Virus record (IMG/VR): IMGVR_UViG_3300044983_000111
Location: 1 to 33,600 of that record
Length of the DNA stretch: 33,600 bases
Reading direction: 5' to 3' (one strand)
Source: a virus
Lineage: Duplodnaviria; Caudoviricetes
Position numbers and translations under genes: made by a program. Shown here in pieces: positions 12,151 through 32,949 of this stretch (position 1 is the stretch's first letter; each line of letters starts with the position of its first letter). Under the pieces are notes generated by a model that saw nothing but the letters and a program-made list of their open reading frames with translations, made no database searches and was not told where the DNA came from.

Positions 12151-12748
12151 ACTACAACTACCAAATGTCACCCTTATCGCATTATCTAGTGTTGACTTTG
12201 AGGGTCACAAGAAAGCCCTAGATAAATCATGCGAGGGGATTGACTTTGGAGCAGTGAAACTTATTTGGGATCAAAAAATTAAAAACATAGATGATTGGAA
12301 CTATAAAATAATATATGAATTACACAATTATGTTGATACTGATTTTGCAATGCTTATACATAGTGATGGCTATATCATTAACCCGTCGGCTTGGAAAGAT
12401 GAGTTCCTCGATTACGACTATATTGGAGCGCCTTGGCCACTACCAGGACGCGACATGCCTGATGACGGATTCTCATACAAGACATCAACAGGGGTGTCCG
12501 TTCGGGTCGGAAATTCAGTTTCTCTCAGGAGCAGGCGGTTACTGCAACTGCCATCAATTCTTGGATTTGAATGGAAAAGCTATTATGGCAACACAAACGA
12601 AGACGGATTCCTCTGCGTCCACAATAGAGCCACTCTTGAAGGCCATGGTTGCAGATTCGCACCTTTGGAGCTCGCCAAGTACTTCTCGAAAGAACACGAA
12701 ATCGAAGAAAACAAGGGAATAGAGACATTTTCTTTTCACTCACTATGA
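12137..12748 (+). CDS. DUF5672-family putative glycosyltransferase
   Basis: DGYIINP..W...FLDYDYIGAPW, VGN..SLRS, NED. Confidence 0.75.
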   Translation: MTTNKLQLPNVTLIALSSVDFEGHKKALDKSCEGIDFGAVKLIWDQKIKNIDDWNYKIIYELHNYVDTDFAMLIHSDGYIINPSAWKDEFLDYDYIGAPWPLPGRDMPDDGFSYKTSTGVSVRVGNSVSLRSRRLLQLPSILGFEWKSYYGNTNEDGFLCVHNRATLEGHGCRFAPLELAKYFSKEHEIEENKGIETFSFHSL

Positions 12749-12912
12749 TTGATAAAACATATAAAGAACAATTTACGTCTGGAATATTGTGGTGTGCAGT
12801 ATCCAAAAAGGGACAAAAAATCTTGGACGCACTATGGAATACTGGAATGTTTGTATCAAAAAGTGCCCTTAGAAATTTATTTAAAGAAGGTGCAATTAAA
12901 AAAATAAGATGA
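12745..12912 (+). CDS. Hypothetical protein (55 aa)
   Basis: ATGA overlaps at both ends; start moved to 12745. Confidence 0.55.
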   Translation: MIDKTYKEQFTSGILWCAVSKKGQKILDALWNTGMFVSKSALRNLFKEGAIKKIR

Positions 12913-13685
12913 TAGCTGGAATTTTTCACAATGGTTCAGGACTAGGTAACCAACTTCACAGATATGTGATGACGAGAGTTTTAGCTATGGACAAAGGATT
13001 CGACTGGGGAATGATCGACACAGGAAACTTTAAAGGGCATCAGTTTTTAAATCTTGATATGGGTAGTGAATTGGATGACAGTGTTGCATACCATGAGTTC
13101 TATGAGAAAAGAGTAAATAATGCACACGGCGTAGATATTCGAGACTATGATTGGGAAGGGATTAATAATATTCGAGATCATACGATAATTGACGGGGAGT
13201 TTCAGGGAGAGAAATACTATGAGCACCACCGAGATAAGATTGATTCATGGCTTGCAGTAGAACCATTAGATTTAGGGGACAACGTGTGCATCATAAACTT
13301 CAGAGGTGGCGAGTACATCCAGTATCCTGATCTTTTTCTCACATATCAGTATTGGGAGAGAGCAATAGAGAAGATGAGAGAGATAAACCCGCATATGGTG
13401 TTTCGGGTAGTAACGGATGATGTGGATAGCGCTTCCATAATGTTCCCACATTTTGAAATCCAGCATGAAATGGCTAAAGATTGGAGATCGATACGATATG
13501 CAAAATATCTGATTCTTTCAAATAGTAGCTTCGCAATTCTACCAGCATGGCTTAACAAGGAAGCGTATATCATAGCTCCATGGGGATGGGCTCGACACAA
13601 TATAGGATACTGGGCTCTAGAGCAAAACAAGATGAAAGGTTGGAATTACTTAAAAACAGACGGAACATATGAAATATATACTTAG
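12909..13685 (+). CDS. Second GT11-like glycosyltransferase
   Basis: GLGNQL, GEFQ, variant NFRGGEY, SNSSF..AWL. Confidence 0.8.
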   Translation: MIAGIFHNGSGLGNQLHRYVMTRVLAMDKGFDWGMIDTGNFKGHQFLNLDMGSELDDSVAYHEFYEKRVNNAHGVDIRDYDWEGINNIRDHTIIDGEFQGEKYYEHHRDKIDSWLAVEPLDLGDNVCIINFRGGEYIQYPDLFLTYQYWERAIEKMREINPHMVFRVVTDDVDSASIMFPHFEIQHEMAKDWRSIRYAKYLILSNSSFAILPAWLNKEAYIIAPWGWARHNIGYWALEQNKMKGWNYLKTDGTYEIYT

Positions 13686-14259
13686 TAGATACAATCACGA
13701 TATAGAATGGCTGAAAGAATATACTGATGATTTTGTCCTCTATGACAGAAGTGAGAAGCCAGTTAAAGGAAGCATCCGAGTGCCGAACATTGGATCAGAT
13801 ATTTACGATAAGCTTACGTACATCATAGATAATTACGACAATTTACCAGATGTAGCAGTATATACGAAAGCTAACCTATTCAAGTACATAACCAAAGAAG
13901 AGTTTGACCAGGTAAAAGATAATAGAACATTTACTCCACTATTCACCAAGCATCACAAAACCTACCTTCCTACCTGCTACTACGACCATAAAGGAAGATA
14001 CAGGGAATTAAATAACTTCTGGTATCTTGGTTCTCACCCGTGTAAGTCCCAGGAAAGTATGGTTGGGTTACTCGGACTGATAAACAATAACTGTCTCTAT
14101 AACGAATTTGCTCCAGGTTCTAATTACATCCTACCAAAAGAGAATATCTTACAGCATACTAAAGTCTTTTATATGAAACTTCGCTCATACTTAGATTGGT
14201 CGGTGTACCCTGGAGAAGCACAGATATTAGAACGTAACTTAATACACATATGGCAGTAA
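13669..14259 (+). CDS. DUF3431-like putative glycosyltransferase
   Basis: SRYN.DIEW, PNIG...YIIDNYDNLPD, FAPG.NYI...NI, LER. Confidence 0.7.
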   Translation: MKYILSRYNHDIEWLKEYTDDFVLYDRSEKPVKGSIRVPNIGSDIYDKLTYIIDNYDNLPDVAVYTKANLFKYITKEEFDQVKDNRTFTPLFTKHHKTYLPTCYYDHKGRYRELNNFWYLGSHPCKSQESMVGLLGLINNNCLYNEFAPGSNYILPKENILQHTKVFYMKLRSYLDWSVYPGEAQILERNLIHIWQ

Positions 14260-15032
14260 TAGATGTAATCACATTTAATGGAGAATACGACTTGCTTGAG
14301 ATTCGACTCAATATATTAAACGATTATGTCGATGAGTTTATTATTGTCGAAGCCCCAACAACATTTAGCGGTAAACCTAAACCTTTATATTATGAAGAAC
14401 AAAAGCAACGATATAGTCAATTTCATTTTAAGATTAAGTATCACGTGGTCAATGAGCACTATAGCCCAGAGGAAATTAATCTGGCGAAAGATAGTCCAAA
14501 TACAAGAGGAGCTTCACATTGGAAAAGAGAGTTCCTTCAAAAAGAAAGTATCAAGAAATCCCTCACGCATTTAAAGGATGATGATATGGTTTTCATAGGG
14601 GATTGTGACGAGATATGGAACCCTTTGATGAGAAATATTATCATTACTTTTCCTATGAAATTACTTTTGAAGGTATACACATATTATCTAAACAATCGTT
14701 CTAGTGAAATATTTCATGGCACTCTCATGTCCCATTATGGGGATGTAAAGGATGCGTGTTTGAACGAACTACGTACTACTAACGTACGAAACAACATTGA
14801 GGTTGGCTGGCATTTCACCTCAGTGGGAGGATATGAAGAAGTAAAGCGTAAACTGACAGACTCATATACTCACGAGACATATGCCGATAAGAGAGTAATG
14901 GATAACTTAGAAAACGCAGTAATTAATAGCCAAGATTTCCTAGGAAGGGGATTCACTTACACAGTAGATGAGAGTGAGTGGCCGCAGTATTTAAAAGATA
15001 ACAGAGATAAATATAAGCATTTAATGAAATAA
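14250..15032 (+). CDS. Glycosyltransferase family 17 (beta-1,4-GlcNAc transferase-like)
   Basis: FNGEYDLLEIRL..L...VDEFIIVEA..TFSGKPKP, DCDEI, GWHFT. Confidence 0.88.
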   Translation: MAVIDVITFNGEYDLLEIRLNILNDYVDEFIIVEAPTTFSGKPKPLYYEEQKQRYSQFHFKIKYHVVNEHYSPEEINLAKDSPNTRGASHWKREFLQKESIKKSLTHLKDDDMVFIGDCDEIWNPLMRNIIITFPMKLLLKVYTYYLNNRSSEIFHGTLMSHYGDVKDACLNELRTTNVRNNIEVGWHFTSVGGYEEVKRKLTDSYTHETYADKRVMDNLENAVINSQDFLGRGFTYTVDESEWPQYLKDNRDKYKHLMK

Positions 15033-15033
15033 T

Positions 15034-16503
15034 ATGAAAATAGTACAACCAAAATCATTACAGAACATTGTTAGAACAGTTAAAGAGTATGTGGACTTTA
15101 TTGCTCCAACATATGGCCCAGCAGGCAAGAAGATACTGATTGCTTTGTCACCGTTTAACATTAAGGCAGTGGATGATGGACATGAAGCAGCTAAAGAATA
15201 CGAGCTTGAAAATGAGTTCTCAAACTCTGTTATTTCATACATTCGAGAAGCAACAGAGAAGACAAACTCACGAGTAGGGGATGGAACAACAACTGCCGCT
15301 ATCTTAACAGGGGCTATTGTAGCAGAAGCTACGAAGGATATTGACGATCCTTTGGTAAAAATGACAGTTCATGGTAAAATTAAGGAGATTGAGAAGGGAA
15401 CTCGCGAAGCTATAGACAAGATTAGAGAGAAATCTAAGACAATTAAGACTAAGCAGGAATTGTACAAAGTCGCATATAACTCATACAACAACGACGAAGT
15501 AGCTACTCTTATTTCTGACACGCTCTTTAAAATAGGTCAGGATGGATTACTCTCTATAGAAGATTCGCATAGTGTTCAAACTGAAGTTGAAATGATCGAG
15601 GGGCTCGAATTGGATAAGGGTATCATGTCTCCATACTTGGTAAACACAGATAAGGACGAAGGAGTTTTAATTAATCCTCAAGTTCTAGTAATCAATAAGA
15701 AGATTGATACATTCCTTGAAATCGCGCCAGTTCTTAAAAACATCATAGAATCAGGTAAAAAGGATATATGTATTGTCGCAGATACTGTAAGTGAGGATGT
15801 TTTAAGATCATGTATCATGAACAAGATCAAAGGATCATTCTCACCACTTATCATAGAAGCACCAGGATTTGGAGATGCTAAGCTCGATAGTCTCAAGAAT
15901 ATCGCCGCAGTCACAGGAGCCACAGTAATTGACCCAAGTATCCTCAAGATTGAAGACATCAAACCAGAGCACATAGGAATTGCAAAGAAGGTTATCTGTA
16001 AAAAGGATAAAACATTAATCTTTGGAGGATCCCAAGCATCTATAGATAAACGAGTTAAAGAACTAGAGAAAGAGCTTAAACACACAGTAATACAATTTCA
16101 AAAGGAAAAGATTGAGAAATTAATCGCAGCTCTTAAAGGAGGAATAGCACTCATTAAGGTAGGAGCTAAAACAGAAAACGAACAAAAGGCTATTAAAGCA
16201 AAGGTCGAAGACGCAGTAAATGCAACTAAGATAGCGTTCAAGGATGGGATTGTAAAAGGAGCAGGACTAACATACTCAGAACTAAAGACAAGCTCACCAC
16301 TCTTAAACGCAGCACTGAAAGCTCCACGCAAACAATTAGAAGAAAACGGCAAAGAATACCTACAAGATAACGTCACAGACCCAGCAGGTGTTCTCATTGC
16401 AGCACTAGAGACAGCAAGCTCTATCGCATGTGGATTACTCAGTATCAGTGGCATTATTACAATGAAGCGTAAGAAGGAAGATAAGGAAATATTTGATTAC
16501 TAA
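15034..16503 (+). CDS. groEL: Phage-encoded GroEL-like (Cpn60) chaperonin, shortened
   Basis: TYGPAG, GDGTTT, APGFGD, IKVGA.TE, VEDAVNA, DP..V; 489 aa, no GGM tail. Confidence 0.92.
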   Translation: MKIVQPKSLQNIVRTVKEYVDFIAPTYGPAGKKILIALSPFNIKAVDDGHEAAKEYELENEFSNSVISYIREATEKTNSRVGDGTTTAAILTGAIVAEATKDIDDPLVKMTVHGKIKEIEKGTREAIDKIREKSKTIKTKQELYKVAYNSYNNDEVATLISDTLFKIGQDGLLSIEDSHSVQTEVEMIEGLELDKGIMSPYLVNTDKDEGVLINPQVLVINKKIDTFLEIAPVLKNIIESGKKDICIVADTVSEDVLRSCIMNKIKGSFSPLIIEAPGFGDAKLDSLKNIAAVTGATVIDPSILKIEDIKPEHIGIAKKVICKKDKTLIFGGSQASIDKRVKELEKELKHTVIQFQKEKIEKLIAALKGGIALIKVGAKTENEQKAIKAKVEDAVNATKIAFKDGIVKGAGLTYSELKTSSPLLNAALKAPRKQLEENGKEYLQDNVTDPAGVLIAALETASSIACGLLSISGIITMKRKKEDKEIFDY

Positions 16504-16504
16504 T

Positions 16505-16792
16505 ATGAAGAAACCTGTTCATCAGCTTAAAAACAGCAAGAAAAAAGGAGAATGGCTAGCACCATGGCAGTTTAAACCTGGTCAGTCTGGTAACCTTAAA
16601 GGTAGAACTCCTGGTAAATCTATGAAAGAATTTGCTAAAGAATATCTATCTAAAATGACGGAAGAGGAACGATTGAAATACTTTGAAGGAATGAACAAGG
16701 TTGAAGTGTGGAAGATGGCTGAAGGTAATCCTAAATCAGATGTAGACCTATCAGGTGAGATTACAAGTAAGATAATTAGCGTAGATGAATGA
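16505..16792 (+). CDS. terS: Probable terminase small subunit (DUF5681-like)
   Basis: QFKPGQSGNLKGR motif, located upstream of terL. Confidence 0.65.
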   Translation: MKKPVHQLKNSKKKGEWLAPWQFKPGQSGNLKGRTPGKSMKEFAKEYLSKMTEEERLKYFEGMNKVEVWKMAEGNPKSDVDLSGEITSKIISVDE

Positions 16793-17033
16793 AGGAGAAA
16801 AATACAAAGAAATAACTAAACTAAGGTTTGAGTATGACGGTGTAGTCGATAACCATTATCGTAATGTTGAGGTTAGATTTAATCCTTATTCTAGTACCAT
16901 GGCTCTATGGGACTTAGATACTGGTGGTTTTAGCCCAATATATGAACAAACTAAGTTAGAACCTTTGTTCAGAACAGAAACAGAAGATATTCAGTACGGG
17001 ATAGAAATTATATATAAAAAATTAGATGAATAA
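16785..17033 (+). CDS. Hypothetical protein
   Basis: 82-aa ORF between terS and terL. Confidence 0.55.
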   Translation: MNEGEKYKEITKLRFEYDGVVDNHYRNVEVRFNPYSSTMALWDLDTGGFSPIYEQTKLEPLFRTETEDIQYGIEIIYKKLDE

Positions 17034-17166
17034 GTATCATTACAAATATCGTTTGTTTATATGCCGAATAGAGAGGAAATGGAACGCATTTTGGTGGAAG
17101 AGAGGAGAGAAAGAGCGTAAAAGAATAGGTCATGAGATATGGTTACATAATCGACGTCAAAAATGA
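17026..17166 (+). CDS. Small basic protein (46 aa; not in ORF track)
   Basis: MNKYHYKYRLFICRIERKWNAFWWKRGEKERKRIGHEIWLHNRRQK. Confidence 0.4.
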   Translation: MNKYHYKYRLFICRIERKWNAFWWKRGEKERKRIGHEIWLHNRRQK

Positions 17167-17206
17167 TAGATAAAGAAAATAAACTAATTCAATTTAAAGA
17201 ATATTT

Positions 17207-18589
17207 ATGGAATCATCAGATGCACTTAAATTCTCAGAACTAGCTAAATTCCTTCCTAAACAGAAGGACGCACAAGAAGCCTCTAAACGCTTTAAGTTTG
17301 TTTTGTATGGTGGATCACTTGGCTCAGGTAAATCATACTGGCTCAGATGGATGATGGTGTATTGGTTAATGAAATACTACGCTAAGTATGGGCTTAAGGG
17401 TGTACGAGCAGGACTCTTCTGTGAAGACTATACCAGTCTTAACGATCGTCATCTGTCAAAGGTAAAGTATGAGTTTCCATCATGGCTAGGACGATACAAC
17501 TCTCAGTATCATGAGTTTACTCTTGCTCCTGAATATGGAAGTGGAGTAATCGCCTTTCGTAACCTTGATGATCCTGAGAAGTATCTGTCAGTAGAATTTG
17601 CTGTCATGGGTGTTGATGAGATCAATCGTAACCCTGTGACAACATTCAGAGAGCTTCGAAAGCGTTTGCGTTGGGCTGGCATTAAAGATGTACGCTTCAT
17701 GGGTGCATGTAATCCAGTAGGTGAAGCATGGGTAAAGAACTTGTGGGTAAAGCGTATGTTCCCTAAAGAGGAGAACGAACAGTATGAGTTTGTATTCGTA
17801 CCAGCATTACCAACAGACAATCCATACCTTGACGCGACATACTACAAGTCTCTTGAGTCATTACCTGAAGCAGAGCGTAAGGCTTTCTTGGAAGGTGACT
17901 GGGATTCATTTAGTGAGACAATGGATGCTAAAGGATACATCCGTGTTGTGAGTGATAGAGAGTTACAAAATAGTATTGTCCAGCAAGGAGATCATTCAGG
18001 GTACAAGATATTGGGTGTTGATCCTGCAGCAGGAGGAGATAAGTCATGTATTGTACTCAAATCAGGTAATTTACAAGAGATTCTCTTTAATCAGAAGCTC
18101 GAAGACACCATGGACTTAGTAGGCGTAATAATGGAGAAATATCGAGACTCTAAAGCTGATTTCATTGTCATTGATAAGTCTGGTGTTGGTCAGGGAGTGT
18201 ATGATCGCATTAAACAACTGGATTACCCATGCCGTGGTGTGTCATTTGGTGAGAAGAGTGAGGATGATATGTTTGCTAACCTAAAGGCTGAATGGCATTG
18301 GCGTGAAAGACAGTGGTTACTATCAGGTGGTAGATTGTTAGCCAATGAAGGATGGAATGAATTTGAATACGTAAAATACAAGAACAAAGAGGGAAAGATA
18401 ATTATCCAACCAAAAGAGGATCTATTTAAAGATGGGCTGATGTCTCCTAACTGTGTTGATGCTGCTGTGCTTACTCAAGTCATTGATGACAACGTCATTC
18501 GCAGCAATAGAATTATGAAAATGAACCAGGGCAGACCATTTTACGATAAGACTGTGGAGATTTGGCATGATGGACAGAAAGAAATTTGA
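17207..18589 (+). CDS. terL: Terminase large subunit
   Basis: Walker A GGSLGSGKS, Walker B VMGVDE, ACNP motif III, RNase H-like LGVDPA...DKSGVG...SPNCVDA. Confidence 0.95.
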   Translation: MESSDALKFSELAKFLPKQKDAQEASKRFKFVLYGGSLGSGKSYWLRWMMVYWLMKYYAKYGLKGVRAGLFCEDYTSLNDRHLSKVKYEFPSWLGRYNSQYHEFTLAPEYGSGVIAFRNLDDPEKYLSVEFAVMGVDEINRNPVTTFRELRKRLRWAGIKDVRFMGACNPVGEAWVKNLWVKRMFPKEENEQYEFVFVPALPTDNPYLDATYYKSLESLPEAERKAFLEGDWDSFSETMDAKGYIRVVSDRELQNSIVQQGDHSGYKILGVDPAAGGDKSCIVLKSGNLQEILFNQKLEDTMDLVGVIMEKYRDSKADFIVIDKSGVGQGVYDRIKQLDYPCRGVSFGEKSEDDMFANLKAEWHWRERQWLLSGGRLLANEGWNEFEYVKYKNKEGKIIIQPKEDLFKDGLMSPNCVDAAVLTQVIDDNVIRSNRIMKMNQGRPFYDKTVEIWHDGQKEI

Positions 18590-18613
18590 CCTATAATTAA
18601 TAGGTGATATAAT
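18586..18613 (+). promoter_or_regulatory. Sigma70-type promoter for the head module
   Basis: TTGACC (18586-18591), 16-bp spacer, TATAAT (18608-18613) with TG extension. Confidence 0.7.
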
Positions 18614-18634
18614 TGAGTTTAATTAAATACTTTA

Positions 18635-18736
18635 CATACCTCCGCTAGAAGTATGGGTTGTTTGCCTCTTGGCCTATAACATCTCTAGCGGAATGATATA
18701 GTCCTGGAACTAAGCCACCCATATTGGGTGTTTTTT
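18635..18736 (+). ncRNA. Kissing-loop attenuator-like RNA, copy 1
   Basis: P1 CATAC/GTATG with loop TCCGCTAGA; P2 GGCCTATAACAT/ATGATATAGTCC with loop cTCTAGCGGA; terminator CACCC/GGGTG plus T6; homologous to 21895-22001. Confidence 0.75.
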
Positions 18737-18739
18737 AAT

Positions 18740-19165
18740 ATGAAAAAGAAGCTACAACTTGAAGATCACCTCGGACGTTCAGGAAAACTGATTGAGAAAG
18801 ATGCTATAGATGCTCCAGTCAAAGACATTGAATGGAAAGCTCAAGAGATGGAAGCACCAGTGTCTGATCCTCTCGCCGATGATGGTTCAGGAAAAGAAGT
18901 GATACTCAGACGGTTTCAGTTCCAATTTCCCCCAAATCTACCAACTAAGCCGACAAAGAAAGAAATACTCGCGTTTCATAAGGACAAACTAAACATATTC
19001 CTATGGAAAGATGAGCTTGAATTAATCCAGACACCCAAAGTACGTGTACACAAGACAGGATACGACATATTCGCTACCTGTATTGCTAAGAAAGGTTCTT
19101 TAATATTTGAAAAGCCTAAACTATTACAACATGCCATCACCCAGCAACCAGGCTCAAGAGATTGA
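18740..19165 (+). CDS. Hypothetical protein upstream of portal
   Basis: 141 aa from ATG 18740, directly after the terminator U-tract. Confidence 0.7.
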   Translation: MKKKLQLEDHLGRSGKLIEKDAIDAPVKDIEWKAQEMEAPVSDPLADDGSGKEVILRRFQFQFPPNLPTKPTKKEILAFHKDKLNIFLWKDELELIQTPKVRVHKTGYDIFATCIAKKGSLIFEKPKLLQHAITQQPGSRD

Positions 19166-21185
19166 TGCCCGACCTCAAATTCTCAGAGATATCGAGACCA
19201 GCTATATGGAGTCTACGCAGTTTCTTCAGGAGCGTAAAAGACGCCAAGTTAACCAGCTTATTCTTCTCAATAATCTTCAACGTGGGGATGAGAATATCGC
19301 CTCTACTCTTTTACTCACTCTGTTTAATCGATTATTGTCTAATCTGTATGAAGATAGACTACAGGTTAAGTTTCTTCCCACTCAAGGGATCACACAGGAT
19401 CAGTTAAACTCATATAACATACTTGCTCAGTCAGATTACCTTGAAATGGATAAGGCAAGAATGGACTACGATTGGATTTGGGATACATTGTTCTTTGGAC
19501 GTGGTTATGTTGAGACATATCAGTTTGATACCAAACGAAAGCTCATGGTTCCTAATGTTATTAATCCTCTTGTCTTTGGATATGATCCATACTTTGAAGA
19601 TGTTAAAGATTGGCGATATTACTGGAAGTGGATTACTAAGAATAAATGGCAACTCACAAAGCTTATTAAAGATGGTGTGATTGATGGCATTAAATCAACA
19701 GACGAAATTGAATCAGGCATTGATCCTCAATTGTATGATTATAAGGCTCGACGTGATAAAGCTAAGAAAGGTATTGAACCAAGTCTTAATCCAATGGGTA
19801 ATGATGTATTTCAGCTATTTGAATTTTATGGCTATAACGAAGAAGGAAAGAAGTGTTGTTACTGGACTGATAAGTCATTCTCTAAAATCCTCATGAAAGA
19901 GGAATTAGATCTACAAGACGGTGAGGATGGAGAATCTAATTGGCCATTAGTAGTGAAAGAAGCCTTCCGAGAACCACACTCAACCATTAACTTCTCTGTA
20001 GCTGATCTTTTGGAAGATAAGCATCGAGCACGATCTGTGCTTCTAAACCTTGCGTTCATTGCGGCCAAGGACAAAGCTAACCCACTGTACATGTATAACC
20101 CTGATAAGGTGAAGGATGTCACACAGCTATTCTCACGACAGATCAATCAGCACGTACCCGTCAATGATGTAAATGGAGCGATCATGCCTCTTAACATTGA
20201 AGAGCCTATGTCTGCTGGACTCATGCAGTTTATGCAACTTCTCAACGCTGAAGCAGAGAACCCAACAGGATCAGGTCAACCTACTCATCAAGCAGGCTCA
20301 AAGAGTAAGTCTACAGCAACTCAAGTGGCTATTGAAACACAGCTTAACCAAATGGCATTCTCTTTGCAGTCTAAGGTTACCCAGTTTGGTGAAAAAGAGT
20401 TCTGGTCTAAATGGTTTCATCAATATGCACGTCATGCAAATGATATGGGAACAAAAATTGCTAACATTGTGGGGGTGAAAGGTGTTAATTCTACTGAAAT
20501 AGATCTTAAGGATTTCAATACAAAGTATCCTCCTGGAGTATTGGTATACTCTGCCAAAGAAGCAGAAGCAACAGAGTTGGTATTGCGTAATACGCTTACA
20601 CAAATCTATCCTGAACTTGCACAAACTCTCGATGCAGATGGTATGCGAAACTTCCAAAAACATGTATATTTCCCTAAATTATTGCAAGATCCATCACTTA
20701 TTGATATAATGTTACCAAAGACATTAGATGAGATGAAAGCGGAAGGAGAGAATGAACAATTGGCAAAAGACAACATGCCAGATGTTTCAGAAACAGATAA
20801 CCACACTACTCACATCTATACTCACCATATGGTTCAGCCGAAGACGTGGGCTACTTGGATGCATATTGCTTGGCACGAAGAATTACTCGATAAACAAAAG
20901 AAGGAACAACAAGGTCAGGGGCAGGGAGGAGATAACAAAGTAAGCGAATCAATTTCATACAAAGATTTACCTCCAGACGGACAAGTACAAATGGCTCAGC
21001 AGGCAGGGATTAAAATAGCACCTCCTCAGCCACAACAAGACACGCAACCTTGGTCATCACAGAGCCCTACAGGGCAATCTAAAGCAAAACAAAAGCCGAT
21101 GGGAGCACAAAAAAAGAATCCATTATCAATGACGGCACCTCTTAAAACAGAAATGAATAAGAACCTTGCCGGTAATTTACAATAA
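19131..21185 (+). CDS. Portal protein (P22-like, with Q-rich C-terminal extension)
   Basis: Size (~685 aa), position between terL and head genes, helical core, WDTLFFGRG..E and ATQV motifs resembling P22-type portals. Confidence 0.8.
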   Translation: MPSPSNQAQEIDARPQILRDIETSYMESTQFLQERKRRQVNQLILLNNLQRGDENIASTLLLTLFNRLLSNLYEDRLQVKFLPTQGITQDQLNSYNILAQSDYLEMDKARMDYDWIWDTLFFGRGYVETYQFDTKRKLMVPNVINPLVFGYDPYFEDVKDWRYYWKWITKNKWQLTKLIKDGVIDGIKSTDEIESGIDPQLYDYKARRDKAKKGIEPSLNPMGNDVFQLFEFYGYNEEGKKCCYWTDKSFSKILMKEELDLQDGEDGESNWPLVVKEAFREPHSTINFSVADLLEDKHRARSVLLNLAFIAAKDKANPLYMYNPDKVKDVTQLFSRQINQHVPVNDVNGAIMPLNIEEPMSAGLMQFMQLLNAEAENPTGSGQPTHQAGSKSKSTATQVAIETQLNQMAFSLQSKVTQFGEKEFWSKWFHQYARHANDMGTKIANIVGVKGVNSTEIDLKDFNTKYPPGVLVYSAKEAEATELVLRNTLTQIYPELAQTLDADGMRNFQKHVYFPKLLQDPSLIDIMLPKTLDEMKAEGENEQLAKDNMPDVSETDNHTTHIYTHHMVQPKTWATWMHIAWHEELLDKQKKEQQGQGQGGDNKVSESISYKDLPPDGQVQMAQQAGIKIAPPQPQQDTQPWSSQSPTGQSKAKQKPMGAQKKNPLSMTAPLKTEMNKNLAGNLQ

Positions 21186-21189
21186 AACT

Positions 21190-21627
21190 ATGGTAGCAAA
21201 TTATTCACCAAAACTTCCACAAGATAGAGCAGGAGCACCAATGCAGGAGTATCCAGCTCCACTTAAAGCTAAGGCCCAGTATGTTGCTGCGCCCGTAGCA
21301 TCGTCAGTTGTTTCTCTAACCGATAACACTACTGCTGTAGAAATCGGAGCAATTGGAGGAGGAGGCATTCTCATGCGATGGGTACCCGTAACAGAAACAG
21401 CAGCAGGTGCACCGTTTGGAAGTGTTATTGCAAGTGGAGCAGGAGCAAACTACGACCACTTTATTCCAGCTAACCAATACAGACGATTTGTTGTACCAAT
21501 TGATCCACTTGATACACCAGCACCTCAGAGTGTTGTTGGATTAAACGTACAGTTAGGTTTGTATAGTCGTATTGCATGGATTAATGCTACAGCTACAAGC
21601 TCTAGTGTATTTGGAACAGAATATTAA
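21190..21627 (+). CDS. Probable virion structural/decoration protein
   Basis: A/V/G/S/T-rich beta-type composition, located in the head module. Confidence 0.55.
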   Translation: MVANYSPKLPQDRAGAPMQEYPAPLKAKAQYVAAPVASSVVSLTDNTTAVEIGAIGGGGILMRWVPVTETAAGAPFGSVIASGAGANYDHFIPANQYRRFVVPIDPLDTPAPQSVVGLNVQLGLYSRIAWINATATSSSVFGTEY

Positions 21628-21644
21628 TATTAACTAATAATATA

Positions 21645-21761
21645 ATGGATGAGAAAGAAAAATTAGAAGAAGAGACAGTTGAGACAACTTCAGAGGAAGT
21701 AGTTGAAGAAAAAGAAGAAGCTCCAGTCGAGGCTCCTGTAGAAATAGTAGAATCATTATAA
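21645..21761 (+). CDS. 38-aa highly acidic peptide (not in ORF track)
   Basis: MDEKEKLEEETVETTSEEVVEEKEEAPVEAPVEIVESL. Confidence 0.55.
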   Translation: MDEKEKLEEETVETTSEEVVEEKEEAPVEAPVEIVESL

Positions 21762-21762
21762 T

Positions 21763-21873
21763 ATGGCAAAAGCAACAGCTAAAAAAAAATTAGGAAAATA
21801 CGCATCAAAGCCTGTGAGAGGTAAATTAGCAAAGGCAGCAGAAAAGATGATGTTCAGTAAGAAGTCAAAATAA
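21763..21873 (+). CDS. 36-aa Lys/Ala-rich basic peptide (not in ORF track)
   Basis: MAKATAKKKLGKYASKPVRGKLAKAAEKMMFSKKSK. Confidence 0.6.
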   Translation: MAKATAKKKLGKYASKPVRGKLAKAAEKMMFSKKSK

Positions 21874-21894
21874 AGGTCGAAATAATTTAATAAG

Positions 21895-22001
21895 ATACTT
21901 ACTTCCGCTAGAAGTATGGGTGACTGAGTTTATCACCTGTGCATCTCTAGCGGAATGTACAGATGGTAACCTAAGCCACTCATACGAGTGGTTTTCTTTT
22001 T
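21895..22001 (+). ncRNA. Kissing-loop attenuator-like RNA, copy 2
   Basis: P1 TACT/AGTA with loop TCCGCTAGA; P2 TTATCACCTGTGCAT/ATGTACAGATGGTAA with loop cTCTAGCGGA; terminator AAGCCACTC/GAGTGGTTT plus U-tract. Confidence 0.75.
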
Positions 22002-22031
22002 ATATTCTTAATCAATTAATTATTAAATAAC

Positions 22032-22538
22032 ATGGCAATCAGACTACCAAGTTCACCCGTTCTCGCATTTCGTTCGTCAATCGCATCAGCAGTTACAGAT
22101 GCAGCGACTATAATCCTTCCACAGGATACAGACGCAATCACTGTTGCTGTAACGTCGTCAGTATTTGGTATCACTACTCTCAATACATTTGTCCAAACAT
22201 CACCAGATGGAGGAACAACATGGATTGATATGGGTAATATCGGAACAATCACAGCTACAACAGGTGCTACACCTACAACAGCTTTGCAGCAACCATGGAT
22301 CGCACATTTCGACACTATTGGTGCTCAAGCGAATCAAGGAACTACATCAGTGGTATCAGTGGGATCAGTTGCATCACGAGGTATCAATCAGGTAGGAGCA
22401 TCAGTAATTGGAGCAGGTCAGTACTCAGGAGTTCCAATCCTAGGTCGAAATCTCCGAATCTTCCACAAAGCAACAGGAACAGGAGCAAGTGATATTTTGA
22501 CTCAGGTATACGTTCATAATCAGAACAATCGAACTTAA
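22032..22538 (+). CDS. Probable virion structural/decoration protein
   Basis: S/T/G/A-rich; QTSPDGGTTWID turn motif common in small beta-sandwich virion proteins. Confidence 0.6.
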   Translation: MAIRLPSSPVLAFRSSIASAVTDAATIILPQDTDAITVAVTSSVFGITTLNTFVQTSPDGGTTWIDMGNIGTITATTGATPTTALQQPWIAHFDTIGAQANQGTTSVVSVGSVASRGINQVGASVIGAGQYSGVPILGRNLRIFHKATGTGASDILTQVYVHNQNNRT

Positions 22539-22547
22539 GTTAATACA

Positions 22548-22913
22548 ATGAATAATTCTTTTATTGCATTAGATAATCTTGAACCAATTGATAAACCTCA
22601 AGAAATAGATAGAAGCCCATGGCTTCGTCAGAAGGAAGTTGAATTGATCAAAATTATCGAAGCTCTACAAAGAGTAAATGTTTCAGAAGATTGGAGTACA
22701 TTGAAATCACACATATTTGAAGGAGTCGTCGAGAAACTTGAAAAAGATATGCTCGATGAAGCTAAAAAGGATAGTCCTGATTTATCAAAGCTCGCAAGTT
22801 TGAAAGGTCAATTTGTATGGGCTAAGAAGTATTCGGATTTAGACTCACTCGCTCAAGCCTTCAAAGTTGAATTACAAGGAATAAGACAAACACTAAAAAA
22901 CTATGGTAAATAA
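22548..22913 (+). CDS. Hypothetical helical protein, head module
   Basis: 121-aa ORF. Confidence 0.65.
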   Translation: MNNSFIALDNLEPIDKPQEIDRSPWLRQKEVELIKIIEALQRVNVSEDWSTLKSHIFEGVVEKLEKDMLDEAKKDSPDLSKLASLKGQFVWAKKYSDLDSLAQAFKVELQGIRQTLKNYGK

Positions 22914-23295
22914 AACACCAACCGACGGAGCGGTTACTGCTCCAGATGCCCCAGTCTACGTTGCACCAGCACCGAGACAGAAGATAGTAGAACGACAAGG
23001 TAGTCAATCAGAACCATTTGTACGACACTGGCCACAAGTCCGTGTAGGTATCTGTGAGTTCTGTGGAGTTTTGGATCATAACGTTGAATCCCAATTCCAA
23101 TACAAACTTTGTCCACATTATCGAGGTATGGAACTTAGATGTTCATACTGTCCTGACACAAAAAACCCAGAAGAGGTTAATGGTCATGCAGTTCTTAACA
23201 TTGTTGAGCATCCAGACAATCCCGACAAACTTATTATTTGTTGTGACTCGTATGAATGTTCACGTAAACACCAGGCTCGATTTAAGAGGAATTAA
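22903..23295 (+). CDS. Cys/His-rich putative Zn-binding protein
   Basis: CEFC, CPH, CSYC, CCDSYEC..KH. Confidence 0.65.
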   Translation: MVNKTPTDGAVTAPDAPVYVAPAPRQKIVERQGSQSEPFVRHWPQVRVGICEFCGVLDHNVESQFQYKLCPHYRGMELRCSYCPDTKNPEEVNGHAVLNIVEHPDNPDKLIICCDSYECSRKHQARFKRN

Positions 23296-23296
23296 C

Positions 23297-23376
23297 TCTT
23301 CACATGAGGTCAGTGCCCTTATGTGCACGTATTAATAACTAATCTTCATACGGAGTTCGTCGCCGTATGCACGTAT
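23297..23376 (+). promoter_or_regulatory. Tandem TCTT-[hairpin]-CACGTAT elements in the scaffold-gene leader
   Basis: Unit 1 CACATGAGG/CCTTATGTG (23301-23325); unit 2 CATACGG/CCGTATG (23347-23369); identical flanks. Confidence 0.55.
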
Positions 23377-23387
23377 AAGACAGCTAT

Positions 23388-23870
23388 ATGAATGAAGAAG
23401 AATTAGAGCTACAAGCTCAGGCAGAAATTACAAACAAAAACACAGTTGAAGATAGAATGAAAAATCTTTCAAAGGCTAAACTTGAAGCAGAAGCTAAGGC
23501 AGAAGCAGAGGCAAAGTCCCGAGCAGAAGCAGAGGCCAAAGTTCAAACAGCAGAGAAAGAAAGAGACTTCTACGCTTCGTTCTCTGACTCTATATCTAAA
23601 TATCCTTCAGCTAATGAGCATAAAGATGCCATTAAGGAAAAGGTGATGTCGGGATATACAGTCGAAGATGCAACAGTATCTGTTCTCGCTAAAGAAGGGA
23701 AACTTGGATCAGTCCAAGCTCCCCCTCCCCCTAGGCAATCTCCAGCAGGAGGATCAGCTTCTAACCAGATTGGATCTAATGGAAGCAAACCTCTTGGAGA
23801 AATGACACGGGAAGAAAAGCGACAAGCGATATTGGACGCAGAATCACGAGGTGATATCTCAAATAACTAA
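23388..23870 (+). CDS. Probable capsid scaffolding protein
   Basis: Coiled coil (EAEAKAEAEAK), Pro/Gly linker, C-terminal EMTREE helix; directly upstream of the major capsid gene. Confidence 0.7.
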   Translation: MNEEELELQAQAEITNKNTVEDRMKNLSKAKLEAEAKAEAEAKSRAEAEAKVQTAEKERDFYASFSDSISKYPSANEHKDAIKEKVMSGYTVEDATVSVLAKEGKLGSVQAPPPPRQSPAGGSASNQIGSNGSKPLGEMTREEKRQAILDAESRGDISNN

Positions 23871-23894
23871 TTCAACTGCCTAACTTTTAAAAAC

Positions 23895-24962
23895 ATGGCA
23901 GTAACAGTAAGAAATTCAGGCTGGGGAGGTTCTTCAGGAAACACATCTGAACTCTTGGTTGCATATATCCAGGATGAAATTCGTGTTCTTGAACCAGATC
24001 TTCAGTATGCACGACTCGGTAAACAGCGAAATGCTCCAAAAGGATATGACAGAATTCTATTCCCACAGACAAACCAGCTTCCAGTCAAAGTAAACGTATC
24101 TATTCAGGGTACACTCTCAGGTTCAGTATTTGGAAACGGCCCTATGCCATCAGTCGGTGGAAACACAGACGGTCAGGCAAACTCACCAGTGTCATCATCA
24201 TTCGGTGTAGCTGCTATTACAGAAGGTACAAATCCTACAGCAGTTACATGGGGTGCGACAGCCTATAGTTCTGGACCATATCAGTTCGGTATTCTCGTAC
24301 AGGTAACAGATCTTCTTGTTCATAACTCAGCTATTGAAGTAGTTGACTCATGTACGATGCAGGTTCGAAATTCACTTGCACGACTTGTCGATACCGTGAT
24401 CCAAAACGTAGTTAACGGAGGTGCAAACGGCATTATCTACGCAGGTGGTAAAACATCTCGTACAGGTTTGGCAGCAGGAGACCTATTGACTCAGACAGAA
24501 ATGACTAAGGCAGTACGTAACCTACGATCAGCTAATGCCGCAGGACTTCGACCATTCGAAGGTAAGTATTTTGCAGGTATCATCCACCCATATGCGATGT
24601 CAGACCTTATGTCGAACACATCGTCAGGTGCATGGATTGATGTTGCTCGATATTCATCTGTCGATGACCTTAAAGAAGGTCGTATGGGTGATTTCCGAGG
24701 AGTTCGATACATGGAAACAGCATACCAGAACGTGTTTAACTCAACGACTACAGTGTTCCCAACAACACTTATCGGTGAGGACTCATTCGGATGGGGCTAC
24801 TTCCAGGAGCCAACTCCAATTCTCGTAACTACTCCAGATGCAGGTAACCCATTGAATCTTTTCAATTCAATCGGAGGTAAGGTCACATTGGGTGTTACTC
24901 GATTTGAAGATACTCCAACAGTACAGCGAATCATTCGCGTTGAATCAGCAGTGTCAGCGTAA
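23895..24962 (+). CDS. Major capsid protein (HK97 fold, N4-gp56-like family)
   Basis: ITEGTNP, QFG....TD, GIIHP....DL, GRMGDFRGVRYMET, PLN....IG.K and IIRVESA patterns. Confidence 0.88.
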   Translation: MAVTVRNSGWGGSSGNTSELLVAYIQDEIRVLEPDLQYARLGKQRNAPKGYDRILFPQTNQLPVKVNVSIQGTLSGSVFGNGPMPSVGGNTDGQANSPVSSSFGVAAITEGTNPTAVTWGATAYSSGPYQFGILVQVTDLLVHNSAIEVVDSCTMQVRNSLARLVDTVIQNVVNGGANGIIYAGGKTSRTGLAAGDLLTQTEMTKAVRNLRSANAAGLRPFEGKYFAGIIHPYAMSDLMSNTSSGAWIDVARYSSVDDLKEGRMGDFRGVRYMETAYQNVFNSTTTVFPTTLIGEDSFGWGYFQEPTPILVTTPDAGNPLNLFNSIGGKVTLGVTRFEDTPTVQRIIRVESAVSA

Positions 24963-24973
24963 TTGCTATGCTC

Positions 24974-24996
24974 CTCAGTCCCTTATGGGGATTGGG
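24974..24996 (+). other. Stem-loop after the capsid gene (stability/processing/weak terminator)
   Basis: CTCAGTCCC-TTATG-GGGATTGGG; no U-tract. Confidence 0.5.
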
Positions 24997-25010
24997 ATAA
25001 CCTAACAATT

Positions 25011-25691
25011 ATGGCTACCAGTATACTGTCTGCAATTACATACGCCCGCCAGCTTGCCTCAACAGACTCAAACGGTATTTCAGATACATTGGGCTTGGCT
25101 TTTGCGAATGATACGCAGAATGATGTCATTCGTGAACTAACAGAGAGAAACATCAATGCAGCGAAACTTACGTTCCCTGTAGCGTCAGTGCTTTCAGCTA
25201 ATACCACTTCGTTTACATGGCCATCAGATTTATATGCGTTAAAGACAATTGAGATTAACTATACGGATAGTAATCAGCAAAACTATATTCAGGCAGAGAA
25301 CGTAGAAATATCTAATACGCAAAGTCAGTCATTTGATTGGCTCAGACTCAATCAACCTACAACACAACCCTTATTCGCTAACTATGGGCCAACATGGGAA
25401 GCCTTTCCAACTCCTAAAGTAGCAGCCAGTGTGAAGTTTGTATATTTCACGTTGCCGACTGAATACCCCGATGTGGGGACAGCTATTCCATATCCATTGA
25501 CACTAGATTATCGAGTTCTTGGGGTTGGAATTGCAAAGTTGTACAAGATGTCTTTGGATGAATTCAGTTCCTCTCAATCATTTGATATTGAGTATAAAAA
25601 AAGAATAAACAAGATTATCAATATCCTTGCTCCAGCTTCACAGCAACCAATAACAGCAGAACCGATTCATTTAAGTGGATACGAATTTTAA
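25011..25691 (+). CDS. Probable head-tail adaptor
   Basis: Position after MCP; FAND...., FT.PSD.....IE and FPTP pattern of phage adaptor proteins; start moved to ATG 25011. Confidence 0.6.
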   Translation: MATSILSAITYARQLASTDSNGISDTLGLAFANDTQNDVIRELTERNINAAKLTFPVASVLSANTTSFTWPSDLYALKTIEINYTDSNQQNYIQAENVEISNTQSQSFDWLRLNQPTTQPLFANYGPTWEAFPTPKVAASVKFVYFTLPTEYPDVGTAIPYPLTLDYRVLGVGIAKLYKMSLDEFSSSQSFDIEYKKRINKIINILAPASQQPITAEPIHLSGYEF

Positions 25692-25693
25692 CT

Positions 25694-27346
25694 ATGGCTA
25701 AATCACAAGAACAACCAGGAGGAACCATTGAACTGACTAACTTTGAGGGTGCTTTAACTCGAAAGAAAAATGGACAGATTAATTCGGGTCTTGCAAAGTT
25801 TTCGACGTCTTTTGGATATGATCCTTTCTCTAAACCAGGCCAATTAACATGGCTTGAATCGCCTGTGGATATTACGGGATCTCAAATTACAGATCTAATT
25901 GTTGCTGCAAAACCTAGATATGAGGCTGCATCTAGTTCTTTATTTATATATGCAATCGGAAGTTCAGGAAGACTATATAAGATCACACCCAACTCAATTT
26001 CTAATCCTAATCTAGATACAGCTTCAGTTTTAGGAACTCTACCCAATGCTTCTTTTAATTTCGGTGGTTCAATGGACTTTTATGGATCAACAGAAAAAAT
26101 ATATATCGGACAAGATGATCGTGTCCAATCAGTTAATTTCGATGGAAGTAGTCCAACGACAGTTGGGACTGTGGCAGATTATTCAGCAAATAGATATCGA
26201 CCTATGATGCAGTTTATTGGTAAGTTAATTTTTGGTAATGGAAATAATATAGGTGCAATTGATTCTACCGGGACAGTTGTTTCTTCTATAGTGGGTAGTC
26301 ATTACGAACATCTCTCCCCAGGACTTCCACCAGAAACATACGTAACAGATTTAGATGTATCTCCTGATGGAAACTATTTATTCATTACTACTTCTGGAAT
26401 AACTAATGAAGGTATTGCCACAGTATCAAATGATAGACAAGCTGCAGCAGCAAGTAATGGAAATATCTATAAATGGAATGGTAGCGATTTAGGTATAACC
26501 GCTCAAACAATCATTCCTTCCTATGCAGTAACAGCTCTTCAGACATTTCTTGATAATAATGTATTTTTTTCCAATGACAGTTTTGGCACATCTCTTTCTA
26601 GTGGCTCACAAAAAAAGATTACTCTTCCAAATAATAAATCTCCTTTTGCTAACTCTACTTTGGTGAACGGAAACTTTGTTTCTTGGATCGCTCCTGAACT
26701 TAATACTGCTGGAACGGGACTAAATGCATCTATGTATTACTACGGAAATTTAGATGACGAAAATCCAAAAGGAATGTGGAGAGTTATGAGATACAGTACT
26801 GCATTGGCAAATGGATTTGTATACCAGACTCCCGTTAATCTTATGACAAATAATAAATATTCAACAGTAAATAATGCGGTCAACGCAGTATCTACTCTTG
26901 GGTATGGAAAACATTATTTTTCTACATTTGAAGTTAATTCATCAAATACAACTGTTTCTTCCACAACTGCTAAATTTTATCGTTTTTGTATTACTCCAAC
27001 AGGAAGTGGTGCACCTCAATTAGGAGTCTGGGAATCTCAAAATCAACTATTTGGAAAAAGAATTAGTGTTAGTGAAATACGTGTATATACAGAACCAACA
27101 GCAGCAAGTAATGGATTTCAATTAGACATCATCGGTAGTGATGGAAATGTTGTAACTAATGGAACATTTACATATACCTACGCAGCAGGAACTGACATCA
27201 CCCTTCTTCAAGGAGCTTTAGAGCGTATTAATTTTAACGTTGATATTAAAAATCTCTATTCAATGGGAATTCGAGTCACGAATACAGGAACGACTAATAT
27301 GATCATTAACAAAATCGAAGTCGATTGGGTCTATTCAGGAAAATAA
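25694..27346 (+). CDS. Probable tail hub/nozzle protein (beta-propeller-like, P22 gp10/T7 gp12 position)
   Basis: 550 aa, beta-rich, N-terminal NFEGAL, follows the adaptor. Confidence 0.55.
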   Translation: MAKSQEQPGGTIELTNFEGALTRKKNGQINSGLAKFSTSFGYDPFSKPGQLTWLESPVDITGSQITDLIVAAKPRYEAASSSLFIYAIGSSGRLYKITPNSISNPNLDTASVLGTLPNASFNFGGSMDFYGSTEKIYIGQDDRVQSVNFDGSSPTTVGTVADYSANRYRPMMQFIGKLIFGNGNNIGAIDSTGTVVSSIVGSHYEHLSPGLPPETYVTDLDVSPDGNYLFITTSGITNEGIATVSNDRQAAAASNGNIYKWNGSDLGITAQTIIPSYAVTALQTFLDNNVFFSNDSFGTSLSSGSQKKITLPNNKSPFANSTLVNGNFVSWIAPELNTAGTGLNASMYYYGNLDDENPKGMWRVMRYSTALANGFVYQTPVNLMTNNKYSTVNNAVNAVSTLGYGKHYFSTFEVNSSNTTVSSTTAKFYRFCITPTGSGAPQLGVWESQNQLFGKRISVSEIRVYTEPTAASNGFQLDIIGSDGNVVTNGTFTYTYAAGTDITLLQGALERINFNVDIKNLYSMGIRVTNTGTTNMIINKIEVDWVYSGK

Positions 27347-27347
27347 T

Positions 27348-28589
27348 ATGGATCAAGAATCAATACAAAAACTAATAGAAGATGAAGTTAGCAATGCAAT
27401 GGCTTTTAGTACAAAAAAAGTCGGAGATACTCCGACAGATGCTTTACAATTGACTCCAAAGAAATACGTTGATACTCAAATAACAACTTTATCCTCAATA
27501 ATATCAAATAACATCACAAGTTCTATTGCTAGTCTTAGTACAAGTAGTCCTTTCGGTATAGGAGTTGATGGTGATGTCTCTTTATCTTCTGGAACAACAA
27601 TTCTGACGCGAGACATGTACTACAACAGTTTAACTTTAACAGGTACGGCAATAGTTGATCCAGCTGGATATAGAATTTTTGTAAAAAACACTCTAACAAT
27701 TGGAACTAATGGAGGGAGCGATACATGTAAAATAATACGAACTGGTAATTCAGGAAGTCCTGGACTCAATGGAAGTACTCAGGCAGGTGGTGCAGGAGGT
27801 GGTGGGGGAAGTGTTATGGGCGGCATTACATTGTCTGACGGTAATGCTGGAACACCTGGAGCTTCTGGAGGGTCAAGTCCCACAAATGCAAACGATGAAG
27901 CTGGAACTGTTGGAGGAACTGGCCCAAGTGGAAATAGTCCGACATCGTCAATCGGAGGAAACGGTGGAAATGGTAATGCAGGTGGTATCGGAGGACAATA
28001 TGCTGGATTTCTTGGTGGAGGTGTAGGGCCTGGAGGTACTGGAGGTACTGTGACAAGACCAGCAAATATACCAGACTCATTGTCCGATGCTATTAATTTG
28101 TGGAATCCCAAAACTTTTGTATTAGATACTAGTTCGGCTGGGGCAGGTGGCGCAGGTGGAGGTGGTGGAGGAGCCCATGCAATCAATAGAATTCCAGGTG
28201 GTGGTGGTGGTGGTGGTGGCTCAGGAAGTGATGGAGGTTTCATTGCTGTGTACGCAAAGACAATTATTAACTATGTTGCTGGAGGAATTCAATCTAAGGG
28301 TGGCGCAGGTGGTGCAGGAGGTAACGGAGCTAATGCTTCAGGAACACTAGGTATAGGCGCAGGTGGAGGTGGTGGAGGGGCAGGCGGTAATGGTGGTACC
28401 GGCGGTGTTGTTATTGTCATGTATTCATCTCTTACTCAAGGAGGAAGTGGGTCGTTTCTTGCTTCAGGTGGCGCAGGTGGCGCAGGTGGAACTAAAGGAG
28501 CTCCAATCGGATCAAATACAGTAGCCGCAGGAGATGGTTCAACTGGAGCAACAGGAGCAAGTGGCGTCGTATGGCAAGTTCAAATCTAA
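27348..28589 (+). CDS. Glycine-rich tail fibre/appendage protein
   Basis: FG.G.DGDV...LTRDMYYNSLT head followed by many GGAGGGGG/GGxGG runs. Confidence 0.65.
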   Translation: MDQESIQKLIEDEVSNAMAFSTKKVGDTPTDALQLTPKKYVDTQITTLSSIISNNITSSIASLSTSSPFGIGVDGDVSLSSGTTILTRDMYYNSLTLTGTAIVDPAGYRIFVKNTLTIGTNGGSDTCKIIRTGNSGSPGLNGSTQAGGAGGGGGSVMGGITLSDGNAGTPGASGGSSPTNANDEAGTVGGTGPSGNSPTSSIGGNGGNGNAGGIGGQYAGFLGGGVGPGGTGGTVTRPANIPDSLSDAINLWNPKTFVLDTSSAGAGGAGGGGGGAHAINRIPGGGGGGGGSGSDGGFIAVYAKTIINYVAGGIQSKGGAGGAGGNGANASGTLGIGAGGGGGGAGGNGGTGGVVIVMYSSLTQGGSGSFLASGGAGGAGGTKGAPIGSNTVAAGDGSTGATGASGVVWQVQI

Positions 28590-28605
28590 TTTAAATACTA
28601 AAACT

Positions 28606-32042: not shown

Positions 32043-32212
32043 GCATAATGAAGAAACAAGTAACCCATATAAAGTATGAATATAACAAAAGCAACGGCGA
32101 CCAAAAATACAAAAGAAACAGCAGTAAATGCAACTGGAGCTTTGCCTTTTGTTACAAAGAATCCTATAACAAGCAGTAGACATATTAATCCGAATAGAAG
32201 AAAGAATCCCAT
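32039..32212 (-). CDS. Small 2-TM membrane protein (moron)
   Basis: MGFFLLFGLICLLLVIGFFV...FVIFILYMGYLFLHYA; 57 aa from ATG 32212. Confidence 0.6.
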   Translation of the reverse strand: MGFFLLFGLICLLLVIGFFVTKGKAPVAFTAVSFVFLVAVAFVIFILYMGYLFLHYA

Positions 32213-32252
32213 ATAAGTTAGTGACCGAAAAGTCGTTAAACTAAGTTCTTTG

Positions 32253-32864: not shown

Positions 32865-32868
32865 AAAA

Positions 32869-32929: not shown

Positions 32930-32949
32930 AGTAACCACCAAACCATATC

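Follow-up and report, generated by a model that had tools for sequence, protein, structure and literature searches.

A candidate transcription attenuator of the anti-antiterminator type in the head operon of uncultured phages

The pyr, trp and infC leaders are attenuators made of an anti-antiterminator (AAT), an antiterminator (AT) and a terminator (T). In the ribonucleic antiterminator (RAT) systems of BglG and LicT, in antisense attenuators of the pT181/pIP501 type and in synthetic small transcription-activating RNAs (STARs), a factor acting in trans prevents the terminator, and a short single-stranded target is exposed early. The phi29 packaging RNA (pRNA) is a 100-nt RNA with two complementary short segments, found near packaging genes. 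The B. subtilis rplJL leader is also an AAT/AT/T attenuator, the AAT being held by L10(L12)4 (PMC4538822). We analysed a 33.6-kb phage record (IMG/VR record IMGVR_UViG_3300044983_000111, positions 1 to 33,600; this whole stretch is called the window), which comes from a podovirus and encodes terS, terL, a portal of the SU10 type, capsid and adaptor genes. Its head operon contains two copies of an element of about 110 bases. This element is very probably a cis-acting transcription attenuator for the head genes. Judging from alignments and folding models, it likely works like an AAT/AT/T attenuator and represents an RNA family matching nothing in Rfam. This bears on a largely open question, the restraint of head genes in phages where no Q, N or late sigma factor can be recognised, and provides a small, concrete switch candidate common to two unrelated lineages of uncultured phages.

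The two copies and their predicted folds

Both copies are intergenic and carry a terminator at their 3' end. An initial annotation of the window had reported them with exact shared blocks and a 9-nt complement between two loops, and all of this was recovered: the copies have in common blocks of 18 nt (18641 and 21904; blastn E ~5e-5 within the window) and 16 nt (18680 and 21942) as well as CTAAGCCAC (18710 and 21971). Each copy reads, in order, z, a, b, linker, c, a*, c*, b* (the terminator 5' arm and loop), terminator 3' arm and U tract (Table 1). The complement of a and a* is 9 nt long in copy 1 and 10 nt in copy 2, and both segments are identical between the copies, while the linker, c and c* have diverged. 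As described in the same annotation, the arms c and c* (its P2) differ and yet pair in both copies, and both terminators and both antiterminator pairings (b with b*) are found. The two terminators are among the three plus-strand terminator matches in 14000-33600, and the fold z-scores of the two copies on the plus strand are -2.4 and -5.8. The components of an attenuator are thus present, namely an intrinsic terminator with a U tract, an antiterminator overlapping the terminator 5' arm, and an anti-antiterminator. With 18 elements detected in other uncultured phage contigs (one each), the family comprises 20 members from two unrelated lineages, all located on the coding strand of the head operon, either ahead of portal or in the stretch that separates portal from scaffold/capsid.

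Two mutually exclusive folds are predicted. In the OFF fold, b would pair with c, then a would zip onto a*, with z often holding c*; b would be locked and the terminator would form. If a were masked, c* would displace the short b:c helix and the freed b would pair with b*, blocking the terminator. The resulting ON rod, made of b:b* and c:c*, would use up the terminator 5' arm. On the simplest reading, the element would be OFF by default through kinetic trapping and would turn ON if a is covered while the polymerase transcribes the ~45 bases that separate it from a*. In folding models, P(a:a*) was at least 0.87 at the end of a* in 19/20 members, the 5' hairpin persisted through c* in 9/11, and removing z and 2 nt of a flipped both window copies. 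These models support the earlier proposal that a:a* pairing is the OFF state. At the decision point the rod was lower in energy in 17/19 members, the exceptions being the window copies (a tie, and 3 kcal/mol favouring OFF). The OFF-to-rod barrier was 14-32 kcal/mol and fell to 3-11 with a removed (L357 not computed); since pseudoknotted intermediates do not enter the calculation, these barriers are upper limits and ON could be the default state, which counts against kinetic trapping.

Conservation of the pairings and distribution

All 20 elements form a:a* with 7-13 contiguous Watson-Crick pairs (22 in L357), in 19 distinct versions. The duplex energy averaged -14.3 kcal/mol for own pairs versus -2.9 kcal/mol for 380 cross pairs. 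The absence of G-U in a:a* is partly by construction, because a was defined by exact complementarity; in scans permitting one G-U there, it appeared only at helix ends. For the ON helices, double changes were observed at 11/20 pairs in a seven-member MAFFT alignment, a value reached by 0/500 shuffles, although such pair counts rest on structures derived from the same sequences. In the set of seven sequences, b:b* was 98% paired with a double change at 3/8 pairs, and b:c was 94% paired with a double change at 3/7. Register shifts in the alignment led us to leave a:a* out of this count. G-U pairs, counted in the first 11 members, make up ~15-19% of the other helices (b:c 17/108, b:b* 22/117, c:c* 29/196, terminator 21/128), indicating that the plus strand acts as RNA. 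Covariation spans the whole expression platform, which is unusual, and the terminator/antiterminator switch proposed ahead of the head genes gains support from homologues in which a:a* and the antiterminator covary. Besides the dependence of the counts on their own structures, three observations weigh against an attenuator: the terminator stem shows double changes at 0/8 pairs in the seven-sequence set (12/500 shuffles for the set of b:c and terminator), L089 lacks the U tract that follows the terminator in 19/20 members, and L353 and L357 depart from the folding pattern.

Relatives were fetched by capsid, g141 (the gene behind copy 1) and TerL, then scanned with descriptors based on pairing only and free of sequence. 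In 927,659 bases the strict descriptor returned 6 rows, which correspond to 4 distinct elements. From the 29 rows of the relaxed one, 11 (10 elements) were kept as intergenic and on the coding strand, the score of L013 being within the range of the dropped rows. A degenerate pattern returned 64 loci, with five known members and a new one, L137, from a phage whose terminase and portal differ from those of the window's lineage and which represents the second lineage. The L137 portal led to 53 loci, where 8/44 descriptor rows were kept on the same grounds; L354 and L339 were added from a profile search, the latter only at E 0.19. In 480,407 real bases, a tightened descriptor picked up 11 members, one tandem repeat and two rows of low score; in 158,452 shuffled bases it picked up nothing. 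The element is optional, being found in 2/64 distinct terL-portal spans and 6/48 g153-g168 spans of the first lineage, and in 12/53 loci (10 distinct) of the second. Among 19 carrier contigs, five of which are 31-41 kb records read whole or nearly whole, the window is the sole two-copy genome. One a sequence is common to three phages (L025, L051, L091), and 22 nt of b and linker are the same in L025 and L137, whose a segments differ.

Other searches added little. The exact 17-nt pattern had 0 matches in viral contigs, where a scan with the single g141 protein also found nothing, and the five loci of an a...a* pattern were all chance inverted repeats. A metagenome scan with the g141 alignment gave 8 loci, none carrying the element, and the genome collection gave 2 loci in metagenome-assembled genomes, without the element and without a usable host. 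A second pattern scan gave 116 loci (97 distinct cores) and only the L061 contig again. Model R1, built on a poor RNAalifold structure and used only as a loose profile, had no true match in 10 other records, and its second match in G019 (27850-27944) is coding sequence and not a copy. As anticipated in the initial annotation, Rfam holds no real match: Rfam 15 gave three weak matches in the window, all away from the element, six element loci gave three matches far below the gathering score, two of them overlapping elements (MIR6135 and Hrs13), and eight element loci gave none at the gathering score. No description of the element was found in the literature, with the alignments of PMC10690425 lying outside this search, so that an unnamed listing there is possible; short motifs and sample numbers had 0 matches in supplementary files 3-6 of that paper.

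Some related structures were seen on the way. At the slot of copy 2, four relatives have hairpins corresponding to the rod only (L008:5226-5295, L012:2375-2470, L027:4939-5015, L046:4915-4970), with b/b* similar to those of the switch; they lack a clear a, and a U tract as well. A simple stem that serves processing or stabilisation may be what the switch arose from, or what it degenerates into. At L061:4731-4750 a is duplicated in tandem, and L353:1633-1700 holds a near-duplicate of a*. Before portal, relatives show other arrangements, with a promoter plus terminator or an arginine-rich mini-ORF (open reading frame) (L088:2096-2171; L061:4599-4720; L063:7751-7909; L072:4503-4667), and in L088 a 9-codon ORF terminates within a terminator-like stem.

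What could flip the switch

We lean slightly towards the full scheme, in which the attenuator is switched ON by one or several proteins masking a during transcription. Taken by itself, this trigger is given somewhat less than even odds. As the masking proteins we tentatively propose the Nus complex of the host (NusB-NusE/NusA), acting alone or together with a phage specificity peptide that escaped recognition. These proteins would load on a boxA-like stretch just 5' of a and cover a while the RNA is made. Scored against the boxA consensus given in PMC5725501, members average 7.80/11, compared with 6.96 for a background of 737 A/T-rich windows located behind stop codons. If the rrn boxA-spacer core of PMC2724277 is used instead, the values are 7.35 for members and 6.42 for the background, and in both cases 0/1000 shuffles are as high. 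Good matches are found in L061, L089, L332 and L358, and the window copies match 7 and 8 of 11 positions. In 12/20 elements, the distance from a stop codon to a is 11-21 nt, and most of the remaining ones lie shortly behind a promoter. This distance fits a module of the size of boxA and spacer, for which PMC2724277 describes oligos of 16-17 nt, but also a terminating ribosome. Separately, a perfect boxA consensus is located directly 5' of the major capsid start codon in L065 (9541-9570) and L068 (8125-8155), as in suhB-type control, which suggests that the hosts read boxA.

Several points speak against protein masking. The boxA of the window copies is at, or one above, the background mode, and just 4/20 members reach at least 9. 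The boxA statistics are weakened, since members are related, the motif idea is post hoc and z is partly explained by its pairing with c*. Constitutive host factors alone would provide no timing. No N-, Q-, NusG- or LicT-like gene was found in the 40 small genes of the complete carrier G001, and no gene is common to carriers yet missing from 7 non-carriers. Among the 42 window genes, likewise, no known antiterminator was recognised, in a window that may be a partial genome and for a class, the N-type peptides, that diverges fast. As to RNA partners, a separate antisense partner of a was not found beyond shuffled targets in G001 (complete), G002 and the window, although a cis antisense transcript may exist, and no second intergenic match to a was found in G017-G021 (G018 complete). 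Two further ideas were rejected: z as a -10 box starting transcription inside a, because the spacing is inconsistent across members, and a mini-ORF in b, because it is not conserved.

The two folds could also be triggered by a ribosome that, on completing the short upstream ORF, sits on z and the beginning of a; untranslated transcripts would then terminate and the element would work as a Rho-independent polarity device. The 12/20 elements with a 11-21 nt past a stop codon fit this idea, P(a:a*) drops in L025, L089 and L091 if the 10-13 nt behind the stop are blocked, and the best candidate for a in L012, a rod-only relative, falls within the last codons of the upstream ORF. However, the stop-to-a distance is 29 nt in copy 2 and 51 nt in copy 1, the block is without effect in copy 2, L047 and L137, and seven members are 21 to >100 nt from the stop, mostly right behind a promoter, making a ribosome trigger rather unlikely. 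We find it unlikely, too, that the RNA refolds to the rod unaided, with a default ON and an excess of head protein binding and holding the OFF hairpin as negative feedback. The lower energy of the rod in 17/19 members, with barriers that are upper bounds, would agree with this, and PMC4538822 documents an AAT/AT/T system in which the AAT is held by a protein; but across the family the OFF hairpin has no conserved loop or bulge that a conserved head protein could read, and the energy of OFF in the two window copies equals that of the rod or lies below it. In positive feedback through RNA alone, read-through transcripts would expose a* as an unpaired loop that binds a in nascent transcripts of either copy and turns these ON while phage DNA is accumulating; such feedback appears quite improbable. 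It would account for the a and a* common to the window copies in the midst of diverged arms, which hints at a genome-specific address, for the b and linker shared by L025 and L137 without a, for the lack of internal G-U in a:a*, and for the finding that, in the genomes searched, a has no good partner outside the element itself. Nevertheless, a 9-10-bp trans partner would presumably have to win within 1-2 s before the cis a* and then resist displacement, the a common to L025, L051 and L091 may mean that a simply changes slowly, and the shared-address pattern rests on the single two-copy genome. Were it true, head genes would fire all-or-none after DNA multiplication with no protein needed and a/a* as a genome-specific address, and the element would be a natural small transcription-activating RNA acting as its own activator.

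The initial annotation had offered two more readings. In its riboswitch version, a P1 helix and a loop-loop kiss form the ligand-binding OFF fold. P1 can be drawn in both window copies (5 bp), but 57/200 and 35/200 shuffles fold as well, and 0/21 tested 5' segments beat shuffles, so that P1 is not retained as a conserved helix. Neither is the kiss as a resting OFF state: the P2 loop leaves 0-2 spare bases beside a* in 9/11 members, and the complementarity is better read, from the folding models, as the base of a nested 5' hairpin of a:a* and b:c, often extended by z:c*, in which b:c covaries. Several members of the second lineage have 3-5 spare U-rich loop bases 5' of a*, and a kissing loop may occur as a refolding intermediate. 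An aptamer is unlikely because family-wide conservation of individual bases is nearly absent (in 11 sequences 4 columns are invariant, and the second lineage is more diverged), and with no Rfam match either, we consider the riboswitch version very improbable. The other reading, a terminated short RNA that oligomerises like phi29 pRNA, draws on the position of copy 1 between terL and portal and on a/a* segments that could pair between molecules. It is still harder to credit, with only 2/64 and 6/48 relatives carrying the element at the two slots, a position that varies, an ordinary TerS/TerL encoded, and a conserved antiterminator pairing that has no role in pRNA. Depending on its identity, the trigger would bring to light an unfamiliar kind of late activator, a novel way of employing host Nus factors, or the activation of one RNA by another.

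Genomic context and comparison with known systems

The coordinates of the segments and neighbouring genes are collected in Table 1. The strong promoter that had been noted ahead of copy 1 proved the best of 34 promoter-like sites in 14000-33600 (11/12, with TG). Between its -35 and -10 boxes lies an operator-like palindrome (18590-18604), and in L031, the closest g141 relative, the extended -10 is kept and the element is absent. For g141, the best ESM Atlas score was 0.75, which is uninformative. Downstream of the 168-aa gene come two small genes, a likely scaffold gene and then the major capsid gene, whose product matches cultured phages at <30% identity only. Gene starts are without Shine-Dalgarno sequences, and the host may perhaps belong to the Patescibacteria.

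Table 1. Positions of element segments and neighbouring features in the window
Feature	Position	Strand	Remarks
Terminase large subunit gene	17207..18589	+	PHROG 2, E 5e-28; Pfam Terminase_3; upstream of copy 1
Sigma-70-type promoter (TTGACC, 16 nt, TG-n-TATAAT)	18586..18613	+	11/12 matches
Copy 1 z	18625..18640	+	5' module, A/U-rich, weakly boxA-like (7/11); predicted to pair with c* in OFF fold
Copy 1 segment a	18641..18649	+	putative anti-antiterminator 5' strand; predicted single-stranded until a* is made
Copy 1 segment b	18650..18658	+	predicted to pair with c (OFF) or b* (ON)
Copy 1 segment c	18671..18682	+	P2 5' arm of the initial annotation
Copy 1 segment a*	18684..18692	+	exact complement of a; predicted apical loop of ON rod
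Copy 1 segment c*	18693..18704	+	P2 3' arm
Copy 1 intrinsic terminator	18716..18736	+	b* is its 5' arm and loop (18717-18725)
g141, conserved gene of 141 aa, first behind copy 1	18740..19165	+	15 proteins including itself; no PHROG/Pfam family
Portal gene	19131..21185	+	Pfam SU10_portal, E 1e-15
Lysine-rich 36-aa ORF	21763..21873	+	stop 29 nt 5' of copy 2 segment a
AGGTCGA motif	21874..21880	+	enriched 25-44 nt before start codons in relatives
Copy 2 segment a	21903..21912	+	9-nt core as in copy 1
Copy 2 segment b	21914..21922	+	
Copy 2 segment c	21930..21944	+	
Copy 2 segment a*	21946..21955	+	
Copy 2 segment c*	21955..21969	+	
Copy 2 intrinsic terminator	21973..22001	+	b* is 21977-21985
Conserved 168-aa gene, first behind copy 2	22032..22538	+	synteny in relatives
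Major capsid protein gene	23895..24962	+	PHROG 1357, E 7e-30

In relatives of both lineages, GGTCG occurs 25-44 nt 5' of start codons in 66/900 upstream regions, versus 8 for its reverse complement, and is possibly a host translation or processing signal. It forms the terminator 3' arm in several members, and in L089 the hairpin, without a U tract, hides it. The likely scaffold gene is preceded by a second conserved structured leader (23296-23388), which relatives have at the corresponding slot (e.g. L015:152-247). This leader consists of two hairpins, and the AGTC loop of the first is complementary to a GACT located further downstream; its core motif was found at 28 loci (some duplicates) against 48 distinct spans, and 4/4 predicted pairs covary in 18 sequences. 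A cysteine-rich conserved 130-aa gene lies just 5' of it (22903-23295), and its product could bind this leader. Elsewhere in the window, a 12-bp tandem repeat (3007-3198) encodes SQLD/SQLR units in a DUF6745 protein, and a block conserved in relatives (7794-16503) holds glycosyltransferase and sugar-modifying genes and, behind them, a gene for a GroEL-like chaperonin.

The element resembles phi29 pRNA in its paired short complementary segments, its ~100-nt RNA and its neighbourhood of packaging genes. It differs in being optional among relatives, in ending with a switchable terminator and in belonging to a phage that uses TerS/TerL. With the RAT, antisense and STAR systems it would share, by analogy, the logic of a factor acting in trans and an early exposed single-stranded target. 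Unlike them, it comes with no CAT-PRD protein (no Pfam/PHROG match in the small genes of G001 or the window genes), no conserved RAT (no Rfam match) and no separate antisense RNA found, and it contains one extra layer of negation. The proposed mechanism is reminiscent of a natural strand-displacement relay with an exchangeable 7-13-nt address, of which the 20 variants could serve as ready-made orthogonal parts.

As in lambda nut (boxA-spacer-boxB, read by N and Nus factors; PMC2724277, PMC5725501), a stretch of similar length lies right before a phage-specific segment, and that segment is common to two copies in one genome; the likeness of this stretch to boxA is modest across the family and weak in the window copies. 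In contrast to nut, the family has no conserved small boxB-like hairpin around a and no N-like gene was found, and read-through would result from RNA refolding at one terminator rather than from a modified polymerase. The rplJL-type attenuators (PMC4538822) are like the element in that three mutually exclusive structures would decide intrinsic termination before an operon. The element differs from them in its place in a phage head operon, its predicted five-segment strand-displacement relay and the lack of a conserved protein-binding motif; and, as OFF is predicted to form first, the factor would activate the operon and not repress it.

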